Part shown: piece after piece, positions 12,284 through 62,131 of the stretch
Layout: each line of letters opens with the position of its first letter
Position numbering within the stretch: position 1 is the first letter of the stretch
Notes under the pieces: model-generated
What the model was told of the DNA's origin: nothing
Database searches by the model: none
What the model saw: only the letters and a program-made list of their open reading frames with translations
Assembly: GCA_963663385.2 (NCBI GenBank)
Contig: CAXXXD010000002.1
Location: 1,408,001-1,472,000, forward strand
Direction of reading: 5' to 3'
Length of the DNA stretch: 64,000 bases
DNA from: Oceanispirochaeta sp.
Lineage (GTDB): Bacteria; Spirochaetota; Spirochaetia; DSM-2461
Position numbers and translations under genes: made by a program

Positions 12284-12291
12284 TACAGAAT

Positions 12292-18517: not shown

Positions 18518-18578
18518 AGTTTTTTCTCCTTAGGATTATACCCTTTTACCGGGGCAATCCTGTATTTTTAGACAATTA

Positions 18579-19907: not shown

Positions 19908-19920
19908 GGAATTCCTCCTG

Positions 19921-23028: not shown

Positions 23029-23042
23029 AATTCCCTCCTGTT

Positions 23043-29851: not shown

Positions 29852-31188
29852 AGCGTTTTAATACGTTCCCCAAAGGGGGAATTCACCCAAGGGACTGTAA
29901 GGAAGCAAGCTGTGAAAAGGCCATACAGAATGCCAGTATGTCCAGTACAGCCGTCATTCCGCTTTCCCAGCATATCGGAGCACCATCCGAATGTCTGGTG
30001 AAAAAGGGTGATACAGTCGAAGAGGGTCAGCTTTTGGGCCGGTCCGGCGGATTCGTATCCGCGAATATTCACTCCCCCGTCCCGGGAGAAGTAAAAGAGA
30101 TCAGGAATATCTATCTGCCCAACGGGATTTCCACTCCCGCCGTTGTAATTGAAATCCAGGGAGAATTCTCCCGTCTGGGTAAAGAGGTTACACCGGTTTC
30201 CTGGGAGAGCATGAGCACGGAAGAACTGACCGCGAAAATTGCCGAAATGGGAATTGTCGGACAGGGGGGAGCTACCTTCCCCACCCATGTAAAACTTGCT
30301 CTTCCCAAAGGGAAAACCTGTGAGGTGTTCATTGTCAATGCGGTGGAGTGTGAACCTTATCTTACCTCGGATCACCGTGTCATGATGGAAAAGGGTGAAG
30401 AGGTCCTTGAAGGAATCCGCATAATCCAGAAAATCCTCAATCCTGTCCGTACGGTTATTGGCATCGAATCAAACAAAATGGATGCGGTAGAGCATTTAAG
30501 TTCTCTTATTCGAGAGTCCGGTCTGGATATGGAAGTAATGCCTCTTCAGGTGAAATACCCTCAGGGTGCGGAAAAGAACCTTATAAAGGCTGTAACAGGA
30601 CGGGAAGTCCCATCGGGAAAACTTCCCCTTGAAGTTGGTGTTATCAATGCCAATGTGGGAACCTGTCTCTCCGTTTTTGAAGCGGTTGTTCTGAACAAAC
30701 CTGTTATTGAAAGAGTCGTTACCGTATCAGGGGGCGCCGTTAAAAATCCTTCCAACCTGAAAGCCAGAGTCGGAACCTCCTTCAGAACCCTGATAGAAGA
30801 CTGCGGAGGATTCTCAGAGGAGCCTGTAAAGATCATAGCCGGCGGTCCCATGATGGGATTTACCGTTTATGATCTGGATACGCCTGTTACAAAGGGAACC
30901 AGTGGAATCCTGGCTCTTACGGCTAAAGAGATCAAAGCGGCCAGGCCGACTGCCTGTCTCTCCTGCGGACGCTGTATCTCAGCCTGTCCCATGGGACTGA
31001 ACCCGACCAGACTGTTCAAACTGATTGACTACAATATGAATGATGAATCGGCGGAAGCCGGTCTTATGGACTGTGTGGAATGCGGCTCCTGCGCTTATAT
31101 GTGTCCAGCTCATATTCCTCTTGTACAGGGATTCCGGAAAGGGAAGAAAATCTTGCGGAAACAATCCATGAAGAAGGCGGGAAAATGA
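29848..31188 (+). CDS. rnfC: Rnf electron transport complex subunit C
   Basis: LSQHIGAP, GQGGATFPTHVK, NAVECEPYLTSD, KYPQGAEK, GGPMMG, two 4Fe-4S motifs. Confidence 0.96.
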   Translation: MKRFNTFPKGGIHPRDCKEASCEKAIQNASMSSTAVIPLSQHIGAPSECLVKKGDTVEEGQLLGRSGGFVSANIHSPVPGEVKEIRNIYLPNGISTPAVVIEIQGEFSRLGKEVTPVSWESMSTEELTAKIAEMGIVGQGGATFPTHVKLALPKGKTCEVFIVNAVECEPYLTSDHRVMMEKGEEVLEGIRIIQKILNPVRTVIGIESNKMDAVEHLSSLIRESGLDMEVMPLQVKYPQGAEKNLIKAVTGREVPSGKLPLEVGVINANVGTCLSVFEAVVLNKPVIERVVTVSGGAVKNPSNLKARVGTSFRTLIEDCGGFSEEPVKIIAGGPMMGFTVYDLDTPVTKGTSGILALTAKEIKAARPTACLSCGRCISACPMGLNPTRLFKLIDYNMNDESAEAGLMDCVECGSCAYMCPAHIPLVQGFRKGKKILRKQSMKKAGK

Positions 31189-32210
31189 AAGATAAACTGA
31201 CTGTTACTAGTTCTCCCCAGTTTCATCACCCCCAATCTACCAGCAGTATTATGTGGACTGTTTCACTCTGCCTGCTGCCTGCGGGGTTATGGGGATTTTA
31301 TATTTTCGGGTTAAGAGCCATTATCGTAACCCTGGCAGCCATTGCTGCAGCCGTCGGAACAGAAGCGGTTCTGGGGCTGATCAATAAAGAGAATACTATT
31401 ACCGACGGAAGTGCTTTCCTTACGGGACTGCTGATTGGTTTCAATATGCCTCCAGCCGTTCCCATCTATGTAGTTGTGATTGCATCCGTTTTTGCCATAG
31501 CTGTTGTCAAATGGACCTTTGGAGGTCTTGGAGCAAACTGGATGAACCCTGCCCTGGCCGGAAGAGTTTTTGTATTTTTTTCCTGGACCAGCGGTATGAC
31601 CAACTGGACCCTGCCGCACTCGGGCACAATCGATGCGGTATCAGGGCCAACCCCTCTAGGATCTCTGAAAACCGGCCTTGCAGGAATTAATGAAACCATC
31701 CGGGGGCCAATGGATCTACTGTCTGCCGAAGGTGTTCCTGTAACATATCTGGATCTTTTTCTGGGGCGTATTCCCGGTTGTATAGGTGAAGTATCGGCTC
31801 TGCTGCTGATAGCGGGGGGGCTGTATCTTATTATCCGGAAAATTGTCAACTGGGAAATTGTTGTATCCTATCTGGGCAGTTTTGCCCTTCTGGTATGGGT
31901 ATTCGGCGGTTTCCGCTATGGAGCCGGTTTTTTCAGCGGAGATGTCCTGTTTCACCTCTTTTCCGGTGGGTTGATGCTGGGAGCTCTTTTTATGGCTACA
32001 GATATGGTAACATCACCCCTCACACCAAAAGGGATGGTTGTATATGGAATCGGCTGCGGTTTTATGACCTATCTTCTGCGATTTTTCGGTTCTGTCCCTG
32101 AAGGAGTATCTCTGGCCATTATTTTCATGAATATTTTCGTTCCCATGATCAACAGAGCCTTCCAGCCTGAAAAATTCGGTCTGGTTCCTAAAGAAAAGGA
32201 GGCGGAATAG
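31185..32210 (+). CDS. rnfD: Rnf subunit D
   Basis: Start MKDKLTVTSSP; FGGLGANWMNPALAGR, FMN site SGPTPL, GCIGEVS, FMATDMVTSP. Confidence 0.95.
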   Translation: MKDKLTVTSSPQFHHPQSTSSIMWTVSLCLLPAGLWGFYIFGLRAIIVTLAAIAAAVGTEAVLGLINKENTITDGSAFLTGLLIGFNMPPAVPIYVVVIASVFAIAVVKWTFGGLGANWMNPALAGRVFVFFSWTSGMTNWTLPHSGTIDAVSGPTPLGSLKTGLAGINETIRGPMDLLSAEGVPVTYLDLFLGRIPGCIGEVSALLLIAGGLYLIIRKIVNWEIVVSYLGSFALLVWVFGGFRYGAGFFSGDVLFHLFSGGLMLGALFMATDMVTSPLTPKGMVVYGIGCGFMTYLLRFFGSVPEGVSLAIIFMNIFVPMINRAFQPEKFGLVPKEKEAE

Positions 32211-32749
32211 TGACTTATACTATGGAAAAAGCAGGAAAACTGGCTTTGATCTGTGCTGTTTCGGCTCTTCTGCTGGGAATCATCAACAGCATGACCGAAC
32301 CGGTTATTGCTGCCAGAAAAAAAATTGAGCTTCAGAATGCCCTTATTTCCCTTATTGAAGAGGGAACTCCCGGAGCTGTGGAAGCTGTCGGCGAAGGGCG
32401 TGTCAACTCCCGGTATCCGATTGAAGGCCCCGGCGGCTGGATCCTGGATATGACCGGAAAAGGCTATGGCGGCGAGATGAAGATTCTGGCTTCCTTTCGT
32501 CCTGACGGTTCTGTAATTGATGTGGTGCTGATGGATAATGCCGAAACCCCCGGTCTGGGGAAAAAGGCGGAAAAGTCCGAATACATGTCAAAATTCCGGA
32601 ATACCGGTGGCGCTGAAGCTGTACCCGTATCGAAAGATATGGTTGATGAATCCCCCGATACAATTACGGGTGCGACAATTACCTTTTCGGGTATAGCAAA
32701 CGCAGTCAGCGAGGGATCCGATTATGTTAAAACTCTGGGAGATAAATAA
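32210..32749 (+). CDS. rnfG: Rnf subunit G
   Basis: GYGG, ETPGLG, FMN-binding DTITGATIT. Confidence 0.93.
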   Translation: MTYTMEKAGKLALICAVSALLLGIINSMTEPVIAARKKIELQNALISLIEEGTPGAVEAVGEGRVNSRYPIEGPGGWILDMTGKGYGGEMKILASFRPDGSVIDVVLMDNAETPGLGKKAEKSEYMSKFRNTGGAEAVPVSKDMVDESPDTITGATITFSGIANAVSEGSDYVKTLGDK

Positions 32750-33373
32750 ATGAGTGAATTTACCAAAGGATTTATCCGGGAAAATCCCATATTTATCCTG
32801 ATGCTGGGGCTCTGTCCCTCTCTGGCTGTTTCAACCCAGGTTGTCAATGCCCTGGGAATGAGCGCCGGAACCATATTTGTATTGGTAGGATCCAATATTA
32901 TGGTATCCCTTCTGAAGAATTTCATTCCCGATGAAATTCATATACCTGCCTATATTGTTATTATTGCCACCTTTGTTACCCTGGTGGATCTGCTGATGCA
33001 GGCCTATGCGCCGGCCCTTTCCAAAAGCCTCGGTGTTTTTGTACAGCTGATTGTTGTTAACTGTATTATCCTGGGCCGGGCGGAAGCTTTTGCCAGTAAA
33101 AATAATGTAAAAGATTCCATAACTGATGCTCTGAGTATGGGGCTGGGATTCTTTTTCGGCCTGACCATGATTGCTCTTATCCGTGAAGTTCTGGGTGCCG
33201 GGACTATTACACTCTTCCCCATGGGAAGTTTTGACGGTGTTATCGAGATCCCCGGGCTGGCAGCAGCTCCTGTAAGGATCATATCTCTTTCGGCAGGTGC
33301 CCTGTTTGTGGTGGGATACCTTAAAGCCATGTTCAACTGGCTGAGTACCAAACCCGGTAAGGAGGCCGCCTGA
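32750..33373 (+). CDS. rnfE: Rnf subunit E
   Basis: LGLCPSLAVS, LIVVNCIILGRAEAFA. Confidence 0.95.
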   Translation: MSEFTKGFIRENPIFILMLGLCPSLAVSTQVVNALGMSAGTIFVLVGSNIMVSLLKNFIPDEIHIPAYIVIIATFVTLVDLLMQAYAPALSKSLGVFVQLIVVNCIILGRAEAFASKNNVKDSITDALSMGLGFFFGLTMIALIREVLGAGTITLFPMGSFDGVIEIPGLAAAPVRIISLSAGALFVVGYLKAMFNWLSTKPGKEAA

Positions 33374-33963
33374 TGACCTATTTGGGAATTGTAATAACCT
33401 ATGTATTTATCAGTAACCTGATACTGGCCCAGTTTCTTGGCCTCTGTCCTTTTATCGGTGTTTCCAAAAATGTTGAATCTGCTGTTGGAATGGGGTTTGC
33501 CGTAACGTTTGTTATGTCTATTGCTTCTCTGGTAACCTGGGCGCTGTATCATCTGATACTGCTTCCCCTTGGACTGATCTATCTGCAGACTATTGTTTTT
33601 ATCCTGACGATTGCTTCTCTTGTTCAGCTGGTGGAAATGGTTGTTCAGAAATACTCCCCCATTCTGTATAAGGCTCTGGGGATCTACCTGCCCCTGATTA
33701 CAACCAACTGTGCCGTAATGGGTATTGCCCTGATCAATATCAACAGCGGCTACAATGTTCTTGAAAGCTTTACAGCCGGTTTCTCTGCGGGTCTTGGTTT
33801 TCTTCTGGCAATTGTTCTGATGTCCGCCATCCGGGTTCAGATGGAAACGGAAAATGTTCCCCGCTACCTTAAAGGCGCTCCCATTGCTTTTATCAGCGGC
33901 GGCTTGATGGCTATGGCATTTATGGCCTTTGATAAAGCTCTGCTTAATAATCTGATAGGATAG
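33373..33963 (+). CDS. rnfA: Rnf subunit A
   Basis: QFLGLCPFIGVSK, LPLITTNCAVMG. Confidence 0.95.
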   Translation: MTYLGIVITYVFISNLILAQFLGLCPFIGVSKNVESAVGMGFAVTFVMSIASLVTWALYHLILLPLGLIYLQTIVFILTIASLVQLVEMVVQKYSPILYKALGIYLPLITTNCAVMGIALININSGYNVLESFTAGFSAGLGFLLAIVLMSAIRVQMETENVPRYLKGAPIAFISGGLMAMAFMAFDKALLNNLIG

Positions 33964-33970
33964 GAAACTG

Positions 33971-34825
33971 ATGGAAGAAGTAATGAGAATATTCTGGGGA
34001 TTCCTGTCCACCGTCCTTTTCGGAGGATTGCTGGGTTTGGGACTGGCTGTTGCCTCCCGGAAACTGAAAGTAGAAAAAGATGAAACCGTCGAGGCTCTGG
34101 ACGGGGCCATGCCCGGTCTGAACTGCGGTTCCTGCGGCTATGCCGGCTGTTCCGGATATGCCGAGGCTCTGGCAGAGGGCAGGGACGAGGATATTACCAG
34201 GTGTAAACCCGGGGGAGCTGATACTCTGGCTGCCATCGGTAAAATACTGGGAATCGAGGTTGATGCCAATGCCGTGCGTATGGTTGCCTGCGTTCACTGT
34301 ATCGGAACCAACGATAAAGCAACCCGCAGCTTTGAGTACGATGGCCTGACAGATTGTAATGCCGCGTCCATCCTCTTTGGAGGGAATAAGGATTGTAAAT
34401 ACGGATGCCTTGGCCTGGGAAGCTGTATTGATGTATGTCCTGCCAATGCCATTCGCAAAACAGGGGATGGTCTGGTGGAAGTAAACCCGGACCTCTGTAT
34501 TTCATGTGGCAAGTGTGTAGACATCTGTCCCACAGGTGTCATGAGGATGATTCCCGAGGATGCAGACTTTATTGTAGCCTGTAATTCCAGGGATAAAGGG
34601 AAAGATACAAAAGCAAATTGCAGTGTCGGATGCATCGCCTGCAGGATATGTGAGAAAAAATTTCCGGAAGCCGGGTATAAAGTGCAGGATAATTTGTCTA
34701 TAATGCAGTATGATAATAGGGGACCCGGAAGAGCAGATGCCGCGCAGAAATGCCCGGCCAAATGTATAATCCCCTATAATGTCGACAAATCGAAAGAGAT
34801 GACAGAGGTCGAAGAGACCGACTGA
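33971..34825 (+). CDS. rnfB: Rnf subunit B
   Basis: PGLNCGSCGYAGC, CKYGCLGLGSC, CISCGKCVDICP, CIACRICEK. Confidence 0.95.
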   Translation: MEEVMRIFWGFLSTVLFGGLLGLGLAVASRKLKVEKDETVEALDGAMPGLNCGSCGYAGCSGYAEALAEGRDEDITRCKPGGADTLAAIGKILGIEVDANAVRMVACVHCIGTNDKATRSFEYDGLTDCNAASILFGGNKDCKYGCLGLGSCIDVCPANAIRKTGDGLVEVNPDLCISCGKCVDICPTGVMRMIPEDADFIVACNSRDKGKDTKANCSVGCIACRICEKKFPEAGYKVQDNLSIMQYDNRGPGRADAAQKCPAKCIIPYNVDKSKEMTEVEETD

Positions 34826-50755: not shown

Positions 50756-53700
50756 TTACTCCTTCCAGACTGATTTTACAATAGGGGATTCCCCGATTTC
50801 CTGCAAGCAGGAGGGGGTGGAAGCAATGGAAATCTGTCCTGAGACCTTGATTACCACCTGACCCTGAGGACGGGGCAGATGGAGAAAAACCGTACTGTTT
50901 CCATTATTATCCTGCAGGAATGCCCTGAAATCGATCAGTTCTTCCTGGTTGTACTCCTTCTCCACCATCTCTATATGGACCTCGCTTTGGGCGATTTCCT
51001 TCATCTCTTCGGGTATGTATACCTCTTTAACTTTAAAACTCGGTTCGCTGCGGGACATATCAACCTGTCCGGAGAATCCCAGAACCCTGTCATTTTCCAG
51101 CAAATGACCGTATTGTTCATACACTTTGGAGAACAGGACAATATCGATGGAACCTTTAAAGCCTTCAACCGTGCCAAAGGCCATTTTTGTTCCCTTTTTG
51201 GTCATGGTCTGACGGATTCCCTTGATCATTCCCAGTATGGTGTAATCCTTGTCCGAAGCGGCTCTGCCGGGGTTATCCAGTCTGAGATTGGTGCACTTTC
51301 TCCAGAAGTATTCGTAATCATCAAGTGGGTGACCGGAAAAGTAGAACCCCAGGTTATCCTTTTCTATCTGAAGGATCTCTTTTGACTCCCAGGGCTCCTG
51401 TTCTTCAATATGAAGTTCGGGGGTGATCTCCTCTTCAAAGTCCCCGAAGAGGGATGCCTGCCCGTACATGGTCCGTTCTTTCTGGTTATTCACAAATTCC
51501 AGGATACGGTCCAGATTGTGCAGCAGGGTAGCTCTGTTCCAGGACTCGTACTTGTCAAACAGCCCGGACTGGATGCTCACTTCCACTACCTTCCGGTTGA
51601 CACAACGGAGATCAACCCTTTCCAGCATATCCTGAAGAGACTTGAAAAGGCCGTTTTCATCCCTCTCCCTTATTATCTCATCAACCGCCGCGGACCCCAT
51701 TCCCTTGATCCCGATCAGACCGTAGAATACTTTTCCATCCACAACGGTAAAGTATTTCTCTGAGTAGTTGATATCGGGAGGAAGAATCTCAATCCCCTCC
51801 TTACGGGCCTGCTCCATATAGTTTGTCATCTGGTTGGTGTCATTGATTTCATTGGTCAGGTTGGCCGCCCAGAACTCGGCGGGATGGTTGGCCTTGCAGT
51901 AGGCGGTTTTATAGGCGACGACAGAATAGGCCGCCGCATGAGATTTGTTGAAACCATAACCGGCAAATGGTTCGAGCATGTCAAAGATCCCCGAAGCATG
52001 TTCTTCCGAGTGACCGATCTCCCTGGCCCCCGCAATAAACTCTATCTTCATTTTTGCCATGTCTTTGACTTTTTTCTTACCCATGGCCCGGCGCAGGATA
52101 TCCGCTTTACCAAGGGAGAATCCGCCTATTATCTGGGCAACCTTCATTACCTGTTCCTGGTAGACAATTACCCCGTAGGTGGGCGTCAGGAGCTCTGTCA
52201 AAGAAGGGTCGGGGAATTTGATAGAGGCCGGATTTTTCTTCCCCTCAATGTACTGGGGGATAAACTGCATGGGCCCCGGGCGATAGAGGGCATTCAGGGC
52301 AATCAGGTCTTCGATGTTGCCGGGTTTGGCCCGGCGCAGGATATCCTGCATTCCCGAAGATTCAAACTGGAATACGGCCGTACTCAATCCTTCGCTGAGC
52401 ATCCGGAAGGTTTTTTCATCTTCATCGGATACGGTGTTTACATTAAAATCGGGATCCAGTTTCCTGACCAGCCCTTCAATGTTTTTAAGAAGAGTCAGGG
52501 TTTTCAGACCCAGAAAGTCCATCTTAACCAGACCGCAGGGTTCTATGATATCCATGGTGAATTCAGAGGTGATATCACCGGTCTTCTGATCCTTGTAGAG
52601 GGGGACGTAATCGGTCAGGATGGAGTTTCCGATGACCTTTCCGCAGGCATGGGTGGAGATATGCCGGTTCATCCCCTCCAGTACCTGGGCTACATCAAAA
52701 AGGTCTTTGTAGGCACCGCCCCTGTCGTAGAACTCTTTCAGTTTAGGTTCGATTTCCAGAGCCACCGCCGTATTGATCTTTCGTCCGTCCGGCGCTTTCC
52801 CTTCCGGGATCAGTTTGGTAATGGCATTGGACTCTCCGAAAGGAATATCCAGAACCCGTGCCACATCTTTCAGAACCGCCTTGGTTTTAAGGGTTCCGAA
52901 GGTACAGATCCCGCCCACCTGGTCATGACCGTATTTGCGGTTGACGTATTCTATAACTTCGCCCCGTCTTTCGAAGCAGAAGTCGATATCAAAGTCCGGC
53001 ATGGAGACTCGTTCGGGGTTGAGGAATCTCTCAAAAAGCAGATCGTATTTCAGAGGATCAATATCCGTGATCCCCATGGCATAGGCAATAATGGATCCCG
53101 CTCCGGAACCGCGTCCCGGTCCTACGGGGATATCATTCAGTCTGGCCCAGTGAATAAAATCCCATACAATAAGGAAGTATCCCTCAAAGCCCATCCCCAG
53201 CAGAATATCCAGTTCGTACTCGACCCGTTTGGTAATCTCATCAGTTACTTTGGAATAGCGGTTCTTTATCCCCTCCCATGTTATATGCTTCAGGTACTCG
53301 GCCTGAGTTTTGAAGTCCGTGGGGATTACGTATTCAGGGAGGATGGGACCGGGCTGGGGAATGGTGAGGTTACATTTCTCGGCCAGGCGGACCGTATTTT
53401 CAAGAGCACCGGGAACATGTCCCAGCAGTTCCTGCATCTGCTCGGCAGTTTTGAAATAAAGTTCCTCTTCATCCATTTTGAAGCGCTTTTCATCGCTCAG
53501 TTTTTTTCCGGTTCCTATACAGACCAGTATATCCTGGGCACGGGCATGCTCCTTTTTCAGGTAATGGATATCGTTTGTGGCAATAATGGGGATACCCGTT
53601 TCATCATGGAGCTTGATGATCCCCTCAATAATGGTCTTTTCCTCGGGGATGCCGTGATCCATGACCTCCAGGTAGAAATTGCCTTCTCCAAACAGACTGT

Positions 53701-54220
53701 TATAGTACAGGGCCTTCTCTTTGGCTTTATCGTACTCTCCCGCCACAAGGTAACGGGGTATCTCGCCGGCCATACAGGCGGTGGAACAGATCAGCCCTTC
53801 ATTGTATTTTTCAAGCAGCTCATCGTCTATCCGGGGACGGTAGTAATACCCTTCCGTATATCCCTTGGAAACAAGTCTCATCAGATTCCGGTAACCCTCT
53901 TCGTTCCTGCAGTAGAGTACCAGGTGAAAGTTCTTGTAGCCGGTGGACTGTTTCTCGTAGCGGGAAGTGGGGGAGACATAAACCTCACAGCCTACAACAG
54001 GGTTAATCCCGGCAGCATGACAGGCCTGTTCAAAGCGGAGGGCACCGAAAAGGTTGCCGTGATCAGTCAGTCCCAGGTGTTTCATCCCCATCTCCTGGGC
54101 CATCTCTATGTATTTGGGAATACGGGCGGCACCGTCCAGGAGTGAATAATCCGAGTGGTTGTGAAGATGAACAAATTCCAATTTAACTCCCCTTGGTTTT
54201 ATTGCTGTAAAAATTTCCAT
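50756..54220 (-). CDS. dnaE: DNA polymerase III alpha subunit
   Basis: HLHNHSDYSLLDG PHP domain, GPGRGSGAGS, PDFDIDF, KMDFLGL, GYGFNKSH; no intein seen. Confidence 0.97.
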   Translation of the reverse strand: MEIFTAIKPRGVKLEFVHLHNHSDYSLLDGAARIPKYIEMAQEMGMKHLGLTDHGNLFGALRFEQACHAAGINPVVGCEVYVSPTSRYEKQSTGYKNFHLVLYCRNEEGYRNLMRLVSKGYTEGYYYRPRIDDELLEKYNEGLICSTACMAGEIPRYLVAGEYDKAKEKALYYNSLFGEGNFYLEVMDHGIPEEKTIIEGIIKLHDETGIPIIATNDIHYLKKEHARAQDILVCIGTGKKLSDEKRFKMDEEELYFKTAEQMQELLGHVPGALENTVRLAEKCNLTIPQPGPILPEYVIPTDFKTQAEYLKHITWEGIKNRYSKVTDEITKRVEYELDILLGMGFEGYFLIVWDFIHWARLNDIPVGPGRGSGAGSIIAYAMGITDIDPLKYDLLFERFLNPERVSMPDFDIDFCFERRGEVIEYVNRKYGHDQVGGICTFGTLKTKAVLKDVARVLDIPFGESNAITKLIPEGKAPDGRKINTAVALEIEPKLKEFYDRGGAYKDLFDVAQVLEGMNRHISTHACGKVIGNSILTDYVPLYKDQKTGDITSEFTMDIIEPCGLVKMDFLGLKTLTLLKNIEGLVRKLDPDFNVNTVSDEDEKTFRMLSEGLSTAVFQFESSGMQDILRRAKPGNIEDLIALNALYRPGPMQFIPQYIEGKKNPASIKFPDPSLTELLTPTYGVIVYQEQVMKVAQIIGGFSLGKADILRRAMGKKKVKDMAKMKIEFIAGAREIGHSEEHASGIFDMLEPFAGYGFNKSHAAAYSVVAYKTAYCKANHPAEFWAANLTNEINDTNQMTNYMEQARKEGIEILPPDINYSEKYFTVVDGKVFYGLIGIKGMGSAAVDEIIRERDENGLFKSLQDMLERVDLRCVNRKVVEVSIQSGLFDKYESWNRATLLHNLDRILEFVNNQKERTMYGQASLFGDFEEEITPELHIEEQEPWESKEILQIEKDNLGFYFSGHPLDDYEYFWRKCTNLRLDNPGRAASDKDYTILGMIKGIRQTMTKKGTKMAFGTVEGFKGSIDIVLFSKVYEQYGHLLENDRVLGFSGQVDMSRSEPSFKVKEVYIPEEMKEIAQSEVHIEMVEKEYNQEELIDFRAFLQDNNGNSTVFLHLPRPQGQVVIKVSGQISIASTPSCLQEIGESPIVKSVWKE

Positions 54221-54296
54221 CCAGCGAAATCAGAGGACCAGTATAATCCTTCCCTCGGGTTTTTTAAACAGGGGGCGGGGAAAATCAGTGAACTTT

Positions 54297-55178
54297 TCAG
54301 CTCCCGAACGGGCTTTTAGGCGGGTCTGCCAGAGATTCCAGAAGCTGCCGGAACAGGTTGCGGATAAGATAGGTTTCATAAGGATTCTCACTGGGAGGAT
54401 AGTAATGTTCCAGATTTCCCATCAGCTGATCAGAATCTTTATGATTAAGGGGAAAACGCCGGCCCAGCAGGTTGGCTTCCAGATCCCTGTTCCGCATAAT
54501 GAGCTTTCCTCCATTGGTAAAAGCAAGGCGGATATCTGAAAGAATCCCTTTTTCCATGGAAGCCAGGCAGTTTACAGTAAGATAAAAATCGTTGCGGATA
54601 TTTATTTTACGATGGAATGTAAAATTTCCCAGGTAATAGGGGATGCGTACTCTGGTCAGCATTTCCCCTTCCCCCAGGTTGATCTCTCCCTCCGGTGTCA
54701 GCATATTACCAAGGGGTATCCAGCGTGATTTCATGGACATCTTCTCTTTCCGCCTCGGCCTTACATGGCGCAGTTCGATCCGTGAATCAAGCAGCTGCAG
54801 TACCGGAAAAAGGTCCATCCTGCGTTCGGGAATGCAGAGATTGCCTCCCAGTGTGGCGCAGTTCCGGATGGGGTTGGGACCCATTTGGCAGAGAGTATCC
54901 TGCAGAAGAGGTGACCGGAAAATATAGGAAGCTTCTATCATCCTGTTGATCGTCACACAGCAGCCGGCTTCGGCGTAGCGGTCGGTTCTGGATATCTTCT
55001 TCAGTTCTTCCAGCTGAGAGAGGGATAGAACCGAGTTATGAATACCCTCCCTGTTTAAAGTGTGGTTAAGGAGGTTGGTCCCCCCTGCCATAAGCAGGGC
55101 CCCCGGGTTTTTCCGGTATAGACTGAGAAGGTCCATAATATTTTGAGGAATACTGATATGGTAGGGAGGCTGTTTCAT
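54297..55178 (-). CDS. Xanthine dehydrogenase family FAD-binding (medium) subunit
   Basis: AGGTNL and IRNCATLGGNLC motifs. Confidence 0.85.
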   Translation of the reverse strand: MKQPPYHISIPQNIMDLLSLYRKNPGALLMAGGTNLLNHTLNREGIHNSVLSLSQLEELKKISRTDRYAEAGCCVTINRMIEASYIFRSPLLQDTLCQMGPNPIRNCATLGGNLCIPERRMDLFPVLQLLDSRIELRHVRPRRKEKMSMKSRWIPLGNMLTPEGEINLGEGEMLTRVRIPYYLGNFTFHRKINIRNDFYLTVNCLASMEKGILSDIRLAFTNGGKLIMRNRDLEANLLGRRFPLNHKDSDQLMGNLEHYYPPSENPYETYLIRNLFRQLLESLADPPKSPFGS

Positions 55179-55651
55179 CTGCTCAGTCTCCTCTGTCTGA
55201 TTCGGGCGGAAGTGAGAATCCCTTCTTTAAGGGTTTCATAGGGGGTACAGTTACATTTCACGGTAGTCAGGATCTCATTGATATGCTTTTCTTCGGGTCG
55301 GATAAACTTGTCCAGCAGTACACCGGTAGTCAGAGTTCTTGCGGGGGCACAATAGTCGCATAGATGTACCCCGGCCTGTTTGAAACCTTCAACAATATCG
55401 TTGAATTCTTCAGTTTCGGCATAGCCTTCAATGGTTTGTACGGATTTTCCTTTTATCTGAAAGACCGGAACCATGCAGGAGTAAACCAGTTCTCCTTCCA
55501 GAACCACCGAACACAAACCGCAGAATCCCTTCTCACAGGCCGATCTGAGTCCTGTGAGACTAAAATCTTCCCGCAGTACATCCGACAGCCTTTTATAGGC
55601 TGGTACCTCTATGGATGTCTCCTGACCGTTCAGTTCAAATTCTATCAGCAT
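55175..55651 (-). CDS. Xanthine dehydrogenase family [2Fe-2S] (small) subunit
   Basis: CEKGFCGLC...SC and LCDYC...CNC; TIEG. Confidence 0.9.
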   Translation of the reverse strand: MLIEFELNGQETSIEVPAYKRLSDVLREDFSLTGLRSACEKGFCGLCSVVLEGELVYSCMVPVFQIKGKSVQTIEGYAETEEFNDIVEGFKQAGVHLCDYCAPARTLTTGVLLDKFIRPEEKHINEILTTVKCNCTPYETLKEGILTSARIRQRRLSR

Positions 55652-57699
55652 CAGCCTGTCTCCTCTTGAAGGAGCTCGGCAGAATCGAGAGGAAGGGATT
55701 TTACAGTTTGTCCCGATGCCAGAGAAACAGCCTGAGCAAAGGCGGCGGGTATCGCTCCAAGGATTAATCCTTCCAATCCTCCAATCCTGGCATTTCTGCC
55801 CTCTATTTCAAGAAAATCAATATGAAGTTTCGGGAACACTGTCGGCCTGATGGCCTGCTTCTTCAGGCACTGGCATAGAGCCAGCCGGACTTCCGCTTCA
55901 ATAAATGAGCGGGCGGAAGTCCTGTCAAGCAAAAGCCCGCAATGGATGGAGATCCAAATACGGGGAACATGGATCTCCATAGTTGCCGTTTCCAGTTGAA
56001 CTTCTACCACCACGGCTGCCCATGAAGGAGCCGAGAAGGGAACCCCTATCATAATTTTCTCGTCCCAGTCAGATTTGGTCCTTCTTCGGTATGACCCCGT
56101 TTCTGTAATGGGAAGAGCTTCACGAAAACGCTTTTTCTGAATCAGATCACAGCTCTGGTCGATCAGTTTCGTCAGGATCGTACTGCTCCGTGAAAGGGTT
56201 GAAGGGCCTGTGAAAAGCTGTTCATCCGCTATATCCATGACAAAACTAATCTGCTCTTCCTCGATGGATAGTCTGTCGGCCACTCTTTTTGTCCAGACCG
56301 CCAGAAGGGCCGGCGTGGCGGGCACTCCGTTTATTATAATTCCCAGATCCCCTTCTTTTCCCAGGGTCGCGGAGACACTGGCCGCTGTCAGTACCTTTTC
56401 TCTGGAGAGGAATTCATTCCCCTGAAAGCAGGTTGCCAGGCCCACACCGTTATATGCGGTAGGCAGGAGATCCAGCTTTGTGCTGTTTAAACGGACCTGT
56501 CTGCCTGCAGCATGTTTCCTTGTATAATCGGATTCACGGCACAGGCTGTCTATCATGACGCCCAGGGGGAGATTCTGCCTGACCGGACCAGAAGTGGGGA
56601 GGAGGTTCCCTTTCTGCACCATATTCTGTTTTCTCCAGTCTGCCGGATCGATACCCGACTCCTCGGCCAGGTGATTGGCAAACATTTCCATTCCGAAGAA
56701 TCCCTGGGGCAGACCCCAGCCGGTCATGGGAAACCAGGGGGGGGTGTTACTGAGATAGGCATACCCGTCAATCTGGATATTCCGGCACTGATAGTAGGAG
56801 GCTGAGGATACGCATAACCGGGAAAGAACCTCGGTTGTAAAGCAGCCGAAGGCTCCTGCATCAATCTGGAAATCCGCCTTCAATGCGGTTAAACGCCCGT
56901 GGGAATCTATTCCCGCTTTATACCGGATCTTCAGTTCCCGGGGAATAAAGGGGTGGTTTTCCTGTTCATCCATAAGACGGATCGGCTGACGAAGGATGGA
57001 CGCCGCTGCAACCGTAAGGGCTGCCGGAACAGCACTCTGCCAGAGGTGGGTGTCCCAGCTTCTGCCTGCCGTATTAAAGCGAAGTTCAACCTGTTTTCGG
57101 CTGATATTGGCTGCCAGGGCGCAGAACTTTCTGATAATAGACGGCCATTGTGTATGCAGGTGGAGAATATATTTTCCCCCCTCTTTTGTACAGAAAATCC
57201 CCATGCGCGGGTAGCTTGGAATTTCCGGCATTACAAGATTGTATTCACCTTCCATAATCCGGTCGGCTTTAATCATCCCCCGGTCAATATCCCCTTTCCG
57301 TATTTTACGGTATCCCGCAGAAAAGCGGGGATCCTTTATGGCGGAAGGCGGAAAAGAGGGGATTCGGCGAATCCGACAGTGAATCTCCCTGCTGATCCTG
57401 GTAAGTGAGTCCTGGTCAGGTCCGCATAAAATACCGACTGGCTGTCCCGGATAGAGAATCCTGTCTTCGGCCAGAAGGGGAATGGCGCAGTCCGGGAGGG
57501 GCATGAGATTTTTACCCGGCAGATCACCGGCCCTCATAAAAAGCATGTCATCGGTCAGTTTCGGTATCTCTATGCTTTCCAGGAGCCCCTGGGAGTAGGG
57601 AGCCCGTATCAGTATGGCATGGGCCATTTTTTTATTTGTCAGGTCCTCGGGGAACCGGATCTGTCCGGCCAGGCGGTTACGGAATTTCACTTCATCCAC
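55651..57699 (-). CDS. Xanthine dehydrogenase family large subunit, degenerate Moco motifs
   Basis: Hammerhead N-terminus (GQIRFPED, IRAPY, DLPGKN, YPGQPV), GIDPADWR, STLSR, VEVQLETAT; 682 aa. Confidence 0.8.
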   Translation of the reverse strand: MDEVKFRNRLAGQIRFPEDLTNKKMAHAILIRAPYSQGLLESIEIPKLTDDMLFMRAGDLPGKNLMPLPDCAIPLLAEDRILYPGQPVGILCGPDQDSLTRISREIHCRIRRIPSFPPSAIKDPRFSAGYRKIRKGDIDRGMIKADRIMEGEYNLVMPEIPSYPRMGIFCTKEGGKYILHLHTQWPSIIRKFCALAANISRKQVELRFNTAGRSWDTHLWQSAVPAALTVAAASILRQPIRLMDEQENHPFIPRELKIRYKAGIDSHGRLTALKADFQIDAGAFGCFTTEVLSRLCVSSASYYQCRNIQIDGYAYLSNTPPWFPMTGWGLPQGFFGMEMFANHLAEESGIDPADWRKQNMVQKGNLLPTSGPVRQNLPLGVMIDSLCRESDYTRKHAAGRQVRLNSTKLDLLPTAYNGVGLATCFQGNEFLSREKVLTAASVSATLGKEGDLGIIINGVPATPALLAVWTKRVADRLSIEEEQISFVMDIADEQLFTGPSTLSRSSTILTKLIDQSCDLIQKKRFREALPITETGSYRRRTKSDWDEKIMIGVPFSAPSWAAVVVEVQLETATMEIHVPRIWISIHCGLLLDRTSARSFIEAEVRLALCQCLKKQAIRPTVFPKLHIDFLEIEGRNARIGGLEGLILGAIPAAFAQAVSLASGQTVKSLPLDSAELLQEETG

Positions 57700-58894
57700 T
57701 GCTGACGCACTCCTTAATCCGGTAACGGCTGCCTATTTTCTGAACCGAATCTGTCACACGGTATAACTGATCCATTGTCATATCCGGAAAGAGGGGAAGG
57801 CTGATAACTCTCCTGAAGCTGTCCGCGGCAAAGGGGAAATCCTCCTCTGTGAAGCCGTATCGGTTCTTGTAGTAGCTCATCATATGCAGGGGTTTGTAGT
57901 GGACGGAAGTCCCGATACCCTCATTCTGAAGTTCTTCGATAAAGCGGTTCCGTGATATGCCGAGTTTCTCTGTCCGGATTTTTATCCAGAACAGATGCCA
58001 GGCATGTTCATCCTTCCAGGAGGGGAGTTCAATAAAATCCAGCTCTCCCAGAGCAGCAAGATAGGCTTTCACCAGCCGCTGTCTCCTCTCCATCATATCT
58101 TCCGCCCGTCCAAGCTGGATTCTTCCGATTGCAGCAGCCAGGTCGGTCATATTGTATTTGAATCCGGGAGCCACAACATCATACTCCCAGGCTGCCTTAT
58201 TCGAGGTGTAACGATCCCAGGCAGCCCTGTCAATGCCGTGAAGGCGCATAATTTCCATCCGTCTGGCCAACTCCGGATGAGAGACTGCTATCATACCTCC
58301 TTCTCCGGTCGTTATGGTTTTATTGGCGTAGAATGAGTAGACTCCCGCATCTGTGTAGGTCCCGACAAAACCCTGTTCCGTCCAGACAGGAAAACAGTGG
58401 GCGGCATCTTCGACCAGAAACAGATCATTCTGCCGGGCCAGATCGTGCAGGTCTTTCAGAAATTGGGGATCCCCCCCAATGTGAACGGGCAGGATCCCTT
58501 TAATACTCCGTTTCTTCTCTCTGAGTTTTCTGATGGCATCCTCTGTTTTTTCCGGATCCATATTCATCCCGCGGGGACCCATGTCCACAAACCATGGATC
58601 GGCGCCGCAGTACCGGACAACTTCCGCTGTCGCCGTAAAAGTATATGTGGGAAGGAGAACGGTATCTCCCGGACCGACTCCCATGGCTTCCATGGCAAGG
58701 TGAAGACCGGCGGTTGCGGAATTCACAGCCAGTGTATGAGCCGCCCCCGAGAAATCGGCAAACTCCTTCTCAAAAGCAAGGGTTTCTTTTCCTGTTGTGA
58801 GCCATCCGCTGCGCAGCACGCGCAGTACAGCTTCTTCTTCCTCTTTCCCGATTGACGGGCGTGAGAAGGGGATAAAATCAGTATTCCGGTTCAT
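57692..58894 (-). CDS. DegT/DnrJ/EryC1/StrS nucleotide-sugar aminotransferase
   Basis: SGWLTTG, NSATAGLH, EDAAH, SFYANKTITTGEGG, GFKYNMTD. Confidence 0.93.
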   Translation of the reverse strand: MNRNTDFIPFSRPSIGKEEEEAVLRVLRSGWLTTGKETLAFEKEFADFSGAAHTLAVNSATAGLHLAMEAMGVGPGDTVLLPTYTFTATAEVVRYCGADPWFVDMGPRGMNMDPEKTEDAIRKLREKKRSIKGILPVHIGGDPQFLKDLHDLARQNDLFLVEDAAHCFPVWTEQGFVGTYTDAGVYSFYANKTITTGEGGMIAVSHPELARRMEIMRLHGIDRAAWDRYTSNKAAWEYDVVAPGFKYNMTDLAAAIGRIQLGRAEDMMERRQRLVKAYLAALGELDFIELPSWKDEHAWHLFWIKIRTEKLGISRNRFIEELQNEGIGTSVHYKPLHMMSYYKNRYGFTEEDFPFAADSFRRVISLPLFPDMTMDQLYRVTDSVQKIGSRYRIKECVSSG

Positions 58895-60350
58895 TTTCTG
58901 GTACCTGCATGGAGGGAAAATATTCCTGAAGGATAGTTCTCAGGCTGTGACGGTTTCGATAAAGTCCGGGATTTTCCGGATCAAAAAAGCAGATGGAGGA
59001 AACTTTTTCTGCAATCACAGAAGCAGGCACTGCGCCGGCATCCGGTTTTACTTTAAAAATCCTGGCATACTCTGTCTGTACGGGGTCTTCGAGTTCATTC
59101 CATAACTTCTCAATTATCTTCTCACCGGGGCGCATTCCTATAAACTGTATGGGTATATCCGATTCCCTGTAACCATAGAACCGTATCATCTGCCTGGCCA
59201 GGTCCAGGATTTTTATGGGTTCTCCCATGTCCAGAATATAAAGCCCGCCGTTGTGTCCGACTCCTCCGGCTTTAAGAACCAGGGAGGAAGCTTCCGGGAT
59301 GGTCATAAAGTAGCGGGTTGTATCGGGATGGGTAACTGTCACAGGCCCCCCTGTGAGAATCTGCTCTTTGAAGAGGGGGATGATGCTCCCTCTGGAGCCC
59401 AGCACATTCCCGAAACGCACTACCATAAAATCCAGGCCCTTTTTCCTCTTCTCCAGAACAAGCATCTCTGCCAGCCTTTTGGTCACACCGTAAACGCAGG
59501 AGGGGTTTACCGCCTTATCGGTCGAAATCAGAACAAGCCGCGGCACTCCAACCTCTTCGGCTGCACGGATCAGATTCAGGGTACCGAAAACATTGTTTTT
59601 TACAGCTTCCACCGGATTCACTTCCATCATGGGTACATGTTTATGAGCGGCACAATGAAAAATAACATCCGCTTTCAGGCGTTTCAGAATAAAATCCATG
59701 TAGTTACGGTCCTGCAGATCCCCTATTACAGGCACGACAGTCGCTCTCTCTCCAACGCCACCTTCCTGCAGGAGGCGCAGTTCCTTTTCAATCCGGTAGA
59801 TGCTGTTTTCTCCATGTCCCAGCAGGTACAGGCGTTCCGCACCGCCCGACAGGAGCTGACGGGCCAGTTCGCTGCCGATGCTTCCTCCCGCGCCTGTAAT
59901 CAGGACTCTTTTCCCTCGCAGGTAGGAGAGGCTTTCAAACAGATCAATCGAGACGGGAGTGCGGCCCAGAAGGTCCTCAGGGTTTATATCACGGGCCTGA
60001 ATAAGATGGGCATGACCGTTTACAATCTGTGAAATGTTGGGGAGTATCCGGATGCGTGTAAACTCTGCCTTGCTCAGTGTGCTGTATATTTTTGACAGCT
60101 CTTCCCGGGTTGCTGTCGGGATGGCTATGATGGCTTCGTCTGCCGGAGTGGTCGTCAAAATCCTTGTAAAAGCATTGATAGGTCCCAAAACAGGAATCCC
60201 ATTGATTTCCGTTCCTATCTTTTCCGGGTTATCATCGAGGAAGGCCACCACTTCGCCGGCTGTTTTTCTGCTGTTTATCTCTTCTGCAATATTGGTTCCG
60301 GCAAATCCGGCGCCAATTATAAATATTCTGGTCTTTTTCTTTGTACTCAC
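58878..60350 (-). CDS. UDP-GlcNAc 4,6-dehydratase-like (CapD/PglF family), no N-terminal membrane domain
   Basis: GAGFAG CoA-binding-like domain, TGAGGSIGSEL, HCAAHKHVP, ISTDKAVNP, RFGNVLGSRGS, RPGEK. Confidence 0.92.
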   Translation of the reverse strand: MSTKKKTRIFIIGAGFAGTNIAEEINSRKTAGEVVAFLDDNPEKIGTEINGIPVLGPINAFTRILTTTPADEAIIAIPTATREELSKIYSTLSKAEFTRIRILPNISQIVNGHAHLIQARDINPEDLLGRTPVSIDLFESLSYLRGKRVLITGAGGSIGSELARQLLSGGAERLYLLGHGENSIYRIEKELRLLQEGGVGERATVVPVIGDLQDRNYMDFILKRLKADVIFHCAAHKHVPMMEVNPVEAVKNNVFGTLNLIRAAEEVGVPRLVLISTDKAVNPSCVYGVTKRLAEMLVLEKRKKGLDFMVVRFGNVLGSRGSIIPLFKEQILTGGPVTVTHPDTTRYFMTIPEASSLVLKAGGVGHNGGLYILDMGEPIKILDLARQMIRFYGYRESDIPIQFIGMRPGEKIIEKLWNELEDPVQTEYARIFKVKPDAGAVPASVIAEKVSSICFFDPENPGLYRNRHSLRTILQEYFPSMQVPENEPEY

Positions 60351-60522
60351 CAAATCAGAATAGCATAGCCCGATTGATTAGTTAATAGAAAACTGCCATT
60401 TTAAAGGCGGGGACGATTTCTTGTATAAAACACTTCTAAATCCTGAAATTACGCCGATAATATGAAAAACCTCTTATGGTCTTTAGAGAACCTGACAGAA
60501 GAGAAGGATAACGGGAGACAGA

Positions 60523-60978
60523 ATGAGAAAGTATTTATCCGGAAAAATATTTCCAGCAGGAATACTGGCTGCATTACTGCTGATGACAGATTTGACAGCG
60601 CAGACAGCCATAGTGAATGCTCAGCCCCTGAGCCCTGCGGCGGAAGCTGCTGCAGACTATACAAAAGATGTGGAAACGGGACTGTTGGAATACCTCTTTG
60701 ATCTGGGGTATATCATTTTCAATCAATCTACAGCAGACTCAGCTCCCGTACTGGTTGAGCTGGGAAAAGAGACCGGAGCGGATATTGTTATAGACTGGTC
60801 CCAGAACTCCGAAGGCCTTGACGGCTCTCTTATTGACTGCCGGACAGGACAGACAATAAGGGCCGTCACAATTGATCAGAAGGTTTTTGAGGACATATAT
60901 AAAAATAATGATCATGAAATGTATTCCGCAATGGGATATCGTTTATGTGAAGAGATGATACCGGATGAATGGAATTAA
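60523..60978 (+). CDS. Hypothetical exported protein
   Basis: 151-aa ORF with GGGAG RBS and a signal-peptide-like N-terminus. Confidence 0.6.
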   Translation: MRKYLSGKIFPAGILAALLLMTDLTAQTAIVNAQPLSPAAEAAADYTKDVETGLLEYLFDLGYIIFNQSTADSAPVLVELGKETGADIVIDWSQNSEGLDGSLIDCRTGQTIRAVTIDQKVFEDIYKNNDHEMYSAMGYRLCEEMIPDEWN

Positions 60979-60994
60979 GGCAGGAGCTTCAAAA

Positions 60995-62131
60995 ATGATG
61001 GATTTTACGAAAAAACCGGGAAGAACGACTCTTATCGGATTATTACTGACTCTGGCGCTGGTCTGGTCTGTTACTGCCGAACCGGTCTGGTCCGGCAATG
61101 CATCTGTGGATAGTACGGAATTTATCAATTTTGTTGAGGATACTCCTCTGGCAGGAGCCTCAAGTTCATTCACCAGAAATACGGTTGTGGAAGTAACAAA
61201 TCCCCAGAACGGCAGAACTATTGAGGTGACAATAGTAAAAAGGGCTCCCAGACCGGGTGTCTTTCTCGTTTTGAGCGGGCAGGCCGGAGAGGCGCTGGAT
61301 TTTCCCGCTGATCAGGTCATCCCCGTTCAGGTCCGTGTCGTAACCGATAAGGAGGAGTCGGGTTATGACAGCCGTTTTGAAAGTACGGATCCCGATATCA
61401 ATCCTGCCGTTAATCTGCCTGCCAGCGAAGCCTCTGCCCTGGTACCCCCCGATCCGGAAGGGACTGTGGTGTCCGGCGATACAGAAGCCGGGCTCTCCCT
61501 GACTGAGGCGGCAGAAGATATTCCTGTGGATTCAGAGATAAGGGATCTCCCTCCCGAGACAGATTCCTTTCTGGATGAACCTGTTCCGGTACCCCTTCCA
61601 GCCGAACCGGAAGAGCTGCTTGCTCTGGCAGAGGAGACTCCCGATAAAGGAGATGTTCTGCCGGAGGAAACAGAAGAGTCTGTTCCGGAGGTTGAAGTAA
61701 CAGAAACTCCCGTTATAGACAGCGTGGCGGAAGTTCCCGCAGAGTTGATCCCGGAAAATCCGGATGAAGACAATGTCATCTACTTTCTGACACCCTCTGA
61801 TTTCAGACCTCCCGTTGCTCCTGTTGAAACAGCGGAGGAAGAAATTGTACCAGTCTATGTGGAAAGGGACGTTCTGGAAGATCAAATCGCGGATCAGTTG
61901 AAAAACGGATCTTCCTATATTCAGCTGGGAGCTTATACAAGTGCGGAAATTGTGTATTCCGAAATGGAGAGTATCGCATCCCGGTACCCCATGATTGTAT
62001 GGACTGACAAGGTGGATAAAGAAACCGTATACAAGCTTCTGATCGGTCCTCTGACCAGTGATGAAACCGGTGTTCTGGTTTACCGTTTTCGGGCCGGGGG
62101 ATACCCCGATCTTTTTCTGTACAAACCCTGA
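60995..62131 (+). CDS. Exported protein with RlpA-like N-terminal domain, acidic linker and SPOR domain
   Basis: TVVEVTNPQNGRTIEVTIV (double-psi barrel-like), E/P-rich linker, YIQLGAY...YKLLIGP. Confidence 0.8.
   Translation: MMDFTKKPGRTTLIGLLLTLALVWSVTAEPVWSGNASVDSTEFINFVEDTPLAGASSSFTRNTVVEVTNPQNGRTIEVTIVKRAPRPGVFLVLSGQAGEALDFPADQVIPVQVRVVTDKEESGYDSRFESTDPDINPAVNLPASEASALVPPDPEGTVVSGDTEAGLSLTEAAEDIPVDSEIRDLPPETDSFLDEPVPVPLPAEPEELLALAEETPDKGDVLPEETEESVPEVEVTETPVIDSVAEVPAELIPENPDEDNVIYFLTPSDFRPPVAPVETAEEEIVPVYVERDVLEDQIADQLKNGSSYIQLGAYTSAEIVYSEMESIASRYPMIVWTDKVDKETVYKLLIGPLTSDETGVLVYRFRAGGYPDLFLYKP

Follow-up and report, generated by a model that had tools for sequence, protein, structure and literature searches.

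An ancient five-gene spirochaete unit joins amino-sugar nucleotide enzymes to a xanthine dehydrogenase-like complex altered at its molybdenum-cofactor residues

Three genes of Borrelia burgdorferi, bb_0554 (622 aa), bb_0555 (155 aa, iron–sulfur [Fe–S] protein) and bb_0556 (289 aa, flavin adenine dinucleotide [FAD] protein), form one operon that was named xdhACB and described as a putative xanthine dehydrogenase (XDH) (Phelan et al., 2023; PMC9993122). In that report, the molybdenum cofactor (Moco) domain of bb_0554 is faintly predicted (Phyre2, 82% confidence over 12% coverage), the Fe–S subunit is remarked upon as odd in an iron-poor bacterium, the bb_0554–0556 mutant is sensitive to reactive oxygen species (ROS) and does not survive in ticks or mice, uric acid and allopurinol have effects, and the authors were unable to confirm the activity biochemically. 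Here, we analyze a 64,000-nucleotide stretch of Oceanispirochaeta sp. DNA (hereafter the window) with a five-gene unit in which genes for a nucleotide-sugar dehydratase and an aminotransferase are followed by those for an XDH-like large subunit (XL), a [2Fe–2S] small subunit (XS) and an FAD-binding subunit (XF). We conclude that the five-gene unit is real and ancient, and that the XDH-like genes in it form a distinct variant within a known superfamily.

The XL-XS-XF trio has the same gene order as the Borrelia operon and comparable sizes (682, 158 and 293 aa vs. 622, 155 and 289 aa), and the two are likened here by order and size only. They differ in that the Borrelia trio has no sugar genes described beside it, and in that it has a ROS and infectivity phenotype (PMC9993122). 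A sequence-only reading of the window had suggested an undescribed spirochaete pathway. This is weakened in that the complex itself is not wholly new, a Borrelia trio that matches it in order and sizes having been studied genetically (PMC9993122). The XdhACB name appears doubtful for this likely Borrelia counterpart. The sequence-only reading had also pointed to a similar run of genes in Treponema pallidum, with TP0077 and TP0078 as putative cap5D and spsC, for which our literature search brought no confirmation. The XDH-like part of that parallel did find support: in a re-annotation table for T. pallidum SS14, TPASS_0079 is entered as XDH Mo-binding-like, and TPASS_0081 as FAD-binding-like of the same enzyme (PMC5951579).

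In the window, the list of open reading frames (ORFs) gives stop/start overlaps of 17, 8, 1 and 4 bp in turn between the dehydratase, aminotransferase, XL, XS and XF genes, which bears out the tight five-gene unit first proposed from the letters alone. The start codons of the aminotransferase and XL are consistent with those of homologues in the alignments. All five genes are under purifying selection, with ratios of nonsynonymous to synonymous substitution rates (dN/dS) of 0.04–0.15 in the three less saturated pairs (0.07–0.11 for XL); no gene of the unit is decaying. Their overlaps, together with the synteny described below, suggest that they are co-transcribed as one conserved transcription unit.

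As judged from its model, XL is unmistakably a homologue of XDH-family large subunits with the whole fold kept. It matches the Pfam models MoCoBD_1 (2.7e-36, 125 bits) and MoCoBD_2 (2.7e-11, 44 bits), and the family profile matches chain B of Rhodobacter capsulatus XDH at 6.4e-82. The a/b-hammerhead model is unmatched by XL and is matched in 52–68% of the members of its nearest Atlas clusters, which are mostly from Spirochaetota. The AlphaFold2 model of XL, made with 82 sequences, reached a predicted local distance difference test (pLDDT) value of 90.9 and a predicted template-modelling score (pTM) of 0.91. In Foldseek it matched bovine, rat and human xanthine oxidase (XO)/XDH, R. capsulatus XDH and Desulfovibrio gigas aldehyde oxidoreductase (AOR), with query-based TM-scores (TMq) of 0.80–0.87 over about 710–765 alignment columns at 17–19% identity.

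Compared with canonical molybdenum hydroxylases (R. capsulatus XdhAB, bovine XO/XDH, D. gigas AOR and carbon monoxide [CO] dehydrogenase), the fold of the large subunit, the two [2Fe–2S] sites, the FAD subunit and the large–small–FAD gene set are alike. In contrast, the identity of XL to them is low, its signature residues are replaced, and the curated XDH-type NCBIfam models all score it far under their cut-offs, at about one-eighth (the best, xdhB, at 100.6 vs. 849.5).

The replaced residues were located in an alignment of the window XL, 10 members of its clade, 134 representatives of the wider family and a diverse canonical set of 14 proteins of the XDH-family and CO-dehydrogenase types, as identified by their source names. 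Sixty-one columns were considered near-invariant, each being common to at least 13 of the 14 canonical proteins. The window XL keeps 31 of the 61 and has changed 30, which supports the earlier description of the XDH-like complex as degenerate. Mean retention over these columns was 0.97 in the canonical proteins, 0.52 in the window clade and 0.49 in the family. From the XDH and AOR structures, we take GGGFG(G/S)K, the arginine of FRGFG, (M)GQG and the glutamine of QIEG to be Moco contacts, and the glutamate of GxGE to be catalytic. In XL, GGGFG reads GRSWD, the FRGFG arginine is Thr326, GQG is T-P-A (Thr462 and Ala464) and the QIEG glutamine is Phe599, while the column of the catalytic glutamate is occupied by glycine, with a glutamate displaced one position earlier. 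The same substitutions were seen independently when XL was aligned pairwise (phmmer) with human XDH and when the family profile was aligned with R. capsulatus XDH.

These substitutions extend well beyond the window protein. The second glycine of GGGFG is present in 13/14 canonical proteins, 8/134 family representatives and 0/11 members of the window clade (here counting XL itself); the corresponding figures are 14/14, 10/134 and 0/11 for the phenylalanine of GGGFG, 14/14, 9/134 and 0/11 for the FRGFG arginine, and 14/14, 6/134 and 0/11 for the QIEG glutamine. The catalytic glutamate, found in all 14 canonical proteins, is kept in 59/134 representatives (with aspartate in another 28/134) and in 0/11 of the window clade, where it is glycine in 11/11. 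At 8 of the 10 tabulated signature positions the canonical residue is present in 0/11 of this clade, the exceptions being the first glycine of GGGFG (11/11) and one glycine of GQG (5/11); the 14 canonical proteins carry all of them, bar one exception at the second glycine. Across the family, residues of the Moco-contact loops are kept in 6–22 of the 134 representatives, and of eight key residues 52 representatives keep zero, 49 keep one and 22 keep two.

On these residues, XL very probably no longer binds Moco. Because it has lost the canonical residues for holding Moco and for hydroxylation, the trio is very probably not a xanthine dehydrogenase. Two high-scoring family members, P0246 and P0259, have all canonical Moco and catalytic signature residues, and a third, P0245, combines most of them with the basic R-x-R...L-P motif of the family and looks transitional. 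All three may represent intermediates on the way from a real molybdoenzyme to the degenerate branch, and with two canonical-looking members and one transitional one the XL branch seems to have descended from a real molybdoenzyme. The apparent invariance of 'IQKKRFRE' in alignment A2 was set aside as evidence, the pattern itself having been used to collect loci; a loose form of it, [IVL]Q[KR][KR]RF[RK], matches 26/149 family representatives. A still looser basic R-F-R...L-P motif is nevertheless conserved in the XL family. Regarding fused forms, the 14 long family representatives (731–919 aa) carry XDH-family domains only, with no sugar or other domain. A complex prediction for XL residues 121–682 with the aminotransferase, both entered as alignments, gave a score of 0.00 (mark 0.32) and weighs neither way.

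The two smaller, electron-transfer subunits are intact by their motifs. XS matches the Pfam models Fer2_2 and Fer2, and its nearest solved relative is the Fe–S subunit of nicotinate dehydrogenase (6.2e-25). Its 8 cysteines align with those of the nicotinate dehydrogenase and quinoline oxidoreductase small subunits and are present in 19/19 aligned orthologues; against the NCBIfam pucE model it scores 114.2, under the cut-off of 254.3. XF matches FAD_binding_5 (PF00941, 4.3e-28), leaves the CO_deh_flav_C model unmatched and has 4zoh_B as its nearest solved relative (9.1e-13). The AGGT and T(L/I)GGN motifs, which we take to be the FAD motifs of XF, are both present in the window protein, and among its orthologues T(L/I)GGNL is found in 19/19 and an AGGT-type motif in 17/19. 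The FAD site and both [2Fe–2S] sites of the trio are thus predicted to be intact, and the trio is best described, from its motifs, as a living flavin/Fe–S complex.

XL belongs to a large family that is centered on spirochaetes. Its close relatives number 13, at 54–91% identity, after which the scores drop from 711 to 96 bits. At least 150 clusters (50% identity) were recovered at 431 bits or more with a profile built from distant members, and a single-sequence search with the Treponemataceae-type XL of locus L004 found 529 proteins at E<=1e-30. Named matches come from Rectinemataceae, Treponemataceae, Spirochaetaceae, Spirochaetales, Oceanispirochaeta and Treponema sp.; the names T. pallidum and Borrelia did not appear among the 120 matches listed from the L004 search. 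When alignment A2 served as the profile query, the matches were the same close clade and canonical XDHs, with no Treponemataceae-type member. By these matches, XL-XS-XF would be a spirochaete-specific branch of the xanthine dehydrogenase family and seems to belong to the core gene modules of spirochaetes.

To place the unit in its genomic context, species-representative genomes were scanned with two family peptide patterns, which provided 23 loci. With the window, the linkage set comprised 24 XL genes, 23 of them testable (L019 comes without upstream sequence). The order dehydratase–aminotransferase–XL–XS–XF with tight junctions was found at 7 loci (window, L001, L002, L003, L004, L021 and L023). 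In a maximum-likelihood XL tree with canonical outgroups, these linked loci fall in all three deep lineages, namely the window clade of 4, L021 with L023, and L004, while the other 17 XL loci group together in a single clade with 98/95 support, sister to L004. The sequence-only reading had staked its proposal on conservation of the linkage, and the outcome is mixed: the five-gene order was recovered in three deep lineages, and 16/23 testable loci, all of one clade, have the trio without the sugar genes (no dehydratase or aminotransferase match at E<=1e-5 in the fetched flanks).

A single change of linkage state on the XL tree was enough in 100% of 200 bootstrap trees, in a phylogeny with long branches, heterogeneous amino-acid composition and an unresolved deep order. 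Between the window and L004, L021 and L023, respectively, identity is 59, 52 and 51% for the dehydratase, 53, 48 and 48% for the aminotransferase, and 29, 25 and 24% for XL, with about 30–32% for XS and XF. The simplest reading is that the five-gene unit would be ancestral and that the sugar genes were later lost or moved elsewhere once, in one lineage that kept the trio.

Outside the window clade, the unit is headed by a regulatory gene. A LoaP-family NusG paralogue lies directly upstream in 19/19 of these loci with upstream sequence (L004–L018 and L020–L023; e.g., L007 9436–9972 and L004 6772–7320), preceding the dehydratase gene where there is one and XL otherwise. Scores against the LoaP model NF033641 (cut-off 125) were 140.6 for L004, 118.6 for L021 and 114.7 for L007, the last two being just under the cut-off and far above the scores of the same proteins on the NusG, UpxY and RfaH models. 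A LoaP-like profile had zero matches among the ORFs of the window and of the L001–L003 loci.

LoaP genes have been reported from Bacillota, Actinomycetota and Spirochaetota and lie close to secondary-metabolite or polysaccharide operons (PMC12691694). The resemblance to LoaP-controlled operons such as dfn and mln of Bacillus velezensis lies in the position of the LoaP-family gene in the 19 related loci; unlike in those operons, no LoaP gene is encoded at the locus in the window or in its three closest relatives. Among Spirochaetota operons, the five-gene unit could be a candidate for control by LoaP. Our literature search found no paper on the five-gene unit or on its LoaP link.

The first gene of the unit encodes a protein matching Polysacc_synt_2 (PF02719, 7e-110), with a CoA_binding_3/PglD_N-like, Rossmann-like domain at its N-terminus. 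Its nearest solved relative is Campylobacter jejuni PglF/WlaL (5bjy; 2.5e-80, 274 bits), and its 'ISTDKAV' aligns with the 'ISTDKAV' of that structure, a stretch which we take to be the site of the catalytic Thr-Asp-Lys of PglF. The PseB model gives 175.5, under its cut-off of 407.75, and the PseB, FnlA and CapE types all score much lower than PglF. Full-length PglF/CapD-type enzymes have an N-terminal membrane-spanning region. No membrane segment was found in the window dehydratase, which begins straight with the Rossmann-like domain; its peak 19-residue hydropathy is 1.32, and this low hydropathy throughout points to a soluble version. The protein is therefore annotated as a putative soluble PglF/CapD-type 4,6-dehydratase of uridine diphosphate N-acetylglucosamine (UDP-GlcNAc).

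The second protein matches DegT_DnrJ_EryC1 (PF01041, 6.9e-114) and has ArnB (8sng, 1.4e-83) as its nearest solved relative. Its model scores, with cut-offs in brackets, are 347 for PseC (423.5), 337 for ArnB (631), 226 for LegC (420) and 133 for RfbH/E1 (423). The lysine that would bind pyridoxal phosphate (PLP), Lys192 in SFYANKTITTGEGG, is unchanged in 7/7 orthologues; the protein has three cysteines only, and no cysteine column is invariant among the 7 aligned orthologues. By its sequence, it is taken to be an ordinary PLP-lysine C4 aminotransferase of the ArnB/PseC-like type.

These PglF and ArnB/PseC matches lend homology support to the proposal, already made in the sequence-only reading, that the first two genes encode a 4,6-dehydratase and an aminotransferase for a UDP-4-amino-4,6-dideoxy sugar; the pair should convert UDP-GlcNAc into a UDP-4-amino-4,6-dideoxy-N-acetylhexosamine (HexNAc). 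The exact sugar and its stereochemistry are not assignable, because both proteins fall under every curated equivalog cut-off. As in C. jejuni PglF/PglE, PseB/PseC and ArnB systems, a PglF-like dehydratase with the TDK stretch is followed by a PLP-lysine C4 aminotransferase. Unlike in those systems, the dehydratase has no membrane domain, and no acetyltransferase, hydrolase, nonulosonic acid (NulO) synthase or glycosyltransferase follows. A domain scan of the window ORFs found no glycosyltransferase, acetyltransferase or flippase near the unit, in agreement with what had been noted before; the sole glycosyltransferase of the window is of family GT4 (8331–9578), about 45 kb away among GH130 and ATP-binding cassette (ABC) transporter genes. 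In another spirochaete, Treponema denticola, flagellins are reported to carry an acylated Pse-type nonulosonic acid (PMC13439194).

How the two halves of the unit might work together is a matter for tentative proposals. The explanation that we favor, while holding it as possible rather than likely, is that the five genes form one unit in which the first two produce an amino-sugar nucleotide and the Moco-less trio belongs to the same LoaP-type glycan program, with a probable redox step on the sugar or its product. The dehydratase, on homology only, would convert UDP-GlcNAc to a 4-keto-6-deoxy intermediate, from which the aminotransferase would form UDP-4-amino-4,6-dideoxy-HexNAc. XL-XS-XF would act as a flavin/Fe–S electron-transfer complex, with a remodelled XL that might bind something other than Moco. 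The trio may belong to the same antiterminator-controlled envelope or flagellar glycan program as the amino-sugar genes, and its most likely role there would be redox tailoring of the amino-sugar nucleotide or of a product derived from it. Functional coupling of the sugar genes and the trio is plausible but unproven.

A more specific version of this proposal, which we consider unlikely in its entirety, would make the XdhACB-like complex a cofactor-switched descendant of the molybdenum hydroxylases, using FAD and two [2Fe–2S] clusters as an electron wire while the emptied pterin pocket binds and redox-tailors a UDP-amino sugar or a glycan precursor made from it. In that case, the capD-degT-XL-XS-XF order (headed by loaP outside the window clade) would represent, in ancestral form, a glycan pathway of spirochaetes that is so far undescribed, and both the Borrelia 'xanthine dehydrogenase' and the T. 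pallidum counterpart would be misnamed. 

With XL-XS-XF, a branch of the molybdenum hydroxylase superfamily that works without molybdenum may have come to light for the first time; no other such branch is known to us. Should XL be unable to bind Moco, the xanthine dehydrogenase assignment in print and its uric-acid model would have to be reconsidered. The ancestral linkage to amino-sugar genes and LoaP offers a concrete, testable lead to the real function of the trio.

Several observations weigh against a shared glycan program. We know of no chemistry that requires a module of flavin and two [2Fe–2S] clusters after C4 transamination. Borrelia is not known to have dehydratase/aminotransferase sugar genes of this kind. 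The 16 trio-only loci, all of one clade, lack the sugar genes in the fetched flanks. The locus sample was not unbiased, having been gathered with two family peptide patterns. Unrelated genes are mixed into spirochaete operons, such as dnaE here and the rsmI-like gene in relatives. Moreover, Moco is probably available in this cell, because ygeW, ygeY, ssnA and ygfK, markers of a molybdenum hydroxylase pathway, are present in the genome. Finally, an oxidative-stress and infectivity phenotype is reported for the Borrelia trio with this gene order and these sizes (PMC9993122).

Some of these points lead directly to another explanation, which we regard as a quite serious possibility: the trio could be a self-contained spirochaete redox complex, serving against oxidative stress or in redox balance, with no chemical link to the sugar genes and an adjacency that was inherited and serves expression only. 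The 16/23 testable loci without sugar genes would fit, as would the evolution of the trio at about twice the rate of the sugar genes, its unrelated housekeeping neighbors (dnaE here; rsmI-like, ligA and mfd in relatives) and the ROS sensitivity and lack of tick or mouse survival of the Borrelia mutant (PMC9993122). However, a merely inherited adjacency does not sit well with a five-gene order whose overlapping or near-abutting junctions are kept in three lineages at 24–29% XL identity, nor with sugar genes that have no other pathway partner nearby. LoaP, where present, heads the whole unit, and LoaP genes are reported beside biosynthetic operons (PMC12691694). The Borrelia trio, in turn, is likened to the XL family by order and size only.

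That the trio is instead a genuine, very divergent molybdenum-dependent dehydrogenase of xanthine (or of another heterocycle or an aldehyde), as proposed for Borrelia xdhACB, seems to us improbable. It would account for the clear homology and full fold match to XDH, XO and AOR, for a subunit set and gene order like those of bacterial XDHs, and for the glutamate kept at the catalytic column in 59/134 representatives, with a few members keeping most signature residues; purine-fermentation-type genes are also found elsewhere in the window. It is difficult to reconcile with the 0/11 count at 8 of 10 tabulated signature positions in the window clade and with NCBIfam XDH-type scores at about one-eighth of the cut-offs, and 30 kb separate the unit from ygeW/ygfK, to which it is not linked. 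Borrelia and T. pallidum are not known to have Moco synthesis genes. The Borrelia evidence itself points both ways, since uric acid and allopurinol had effects and the authors could not confirm the activity biochemically (PMC9993122).

A further analogy, drawn in the sequence-only reading, was to 3,6-dideoxyhexose synthesis, in which the DegT-fold enzyme would be a dehydrase dependent on pyridoxamine phosphate (PMP) and XS/XF its flavin/[2Fe–2S] reductase. In E1/ColD-type dehydrases the catalytic lysine is replaced, E1 carries a [2Fe–2S] motif, and E3 is an FNR-type flavin/[2Fe–2S] reductase. Here, a DegT-fold enzyme is likewise translationally coupled to a flavin/[2Fe–2S] module, and the likeness to E1/E3 (AscC/AscD, RfbH) is one of the parts list only. 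The aminotransferase keeps its PLP lysine in 7/7 orthologues and scores 133 bits on the RfbH/E1 model vs. 347 on PseC and 337 on ArnB, none of its three cysteines is at an invariant column, and XF belongs to FAD_binding_5 and not to the FNR family of E3. The analogy therefore did not hold, and we consider an E1/E3-style function extremely improbable; deoxygenation by this mechanism was rejected on the kept lysine, the missing cluster motif and the different reductase family.

The coordinates of the unit are listed in Table 1.

Table 1. Genes of the five-gene unit, its upstream region and the rsmI-like gene of related loci
Feature	Position	Strand	Description
Dehydratase gene	58878..60353	-	491 aa; start TTG 60353 or GTG 60350 one codon inside, the latter used in the sequence-only reading
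Aminotransferase gene	57692..58894	-	400 aa; DegT family sugar-nucleotide C4 aminotransferase
XL gene	55651..57699	-	682 aa; XDH-like large subunit; GTG start
XS gene	55175..55651	-	158 aa; [2Fe–2S] small subunit
XF gene	54297..55178	-	293 aa; FAD-binding subunit
Intergenic region, dehydratase gene to divergent gene	60354..60522	.	169 bp; probable promoter region of the unit
rsmI-like gene	L006–L008, L010–L013, L015–L023 (not L014); e.g., L007 13342–14103		downstream of XF

The intergenic region upstream of the dehydratase gene contains a single sigma-70-like site on the minus strand (60427–60398), a kind of site that is not more frequent there than in shuffled sequence. A promoter and terminator scan of the unit likewise gave counts no higher than in shuffles, and Rfam had zero RNA family matches in 53900–60700. 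On the other side of the unit, dnaE (50756–54296) starts 76 bp past the XF stop on the same strand. The junction shows no clear terminator, its sole promoter-like site (54268–54240) is weak, and dnaE may be read through from the unit. Further genes on the same strand downstream are those for a YGGT protein, recG, an RsmD-like protein, a LysM amidase and hisG/hisZ.

The opposite strand carries, upstream of the unit, genes for a 151-aa protein, a 388-aa RlpA-like protein and a Na+/H+ exchanger. The first two, divergent from the unit (60523–62131, plus strand), encode proteins with signal-peptide-like N-termini, the 151-aa one with no family match and the 388-aa one weakly RlpA/DPBB-like, and both are retained beside the unit in L001–L003. 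The neighborhood differs in other relatives: in 16 loci (Table 1) an rsmI-like TP_methylase gene (TIGR00096, under cut-off) comes directly after XF, overlapping or abutting it, and ligA and mfd are also packed beside the trio, whereas the window and L001–L003 have neither LoaP nor the rsmI-like gene, dnaE following XF instead.

Elsewhere in the window, ygeW, arcC (carbamate kinase), ygeY, ssnA and ygfK (2820–4994 and 17312–25696, minus strand) all score above their NCBIfam cut-offs and are accompanied by two PLP enzymes and a YheO-like regulator. The genes ygeW, ygeY, ssnA and ygfK are markers of a selenium-dependent molybdenum hydroxylase and of anaerobic purine/urate breakdown; no canonical XDH gene accompanies this set inside the window. 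A complete-looking Rnf-type complex (29848–34825, plus strand; domains in the order RnfC, D, G, E, A, B) could serve the organism as a ferredoxin-linked source of electrons. The region 7325–17070, with two GH130 mannoside-phosphorylase-like genes, the GT4 gene, an ABC sugar transporter (binding protein and two permeases) and a LacI regulator, looks like a mannoside utilization cluster unrelated to the five-gene unit.

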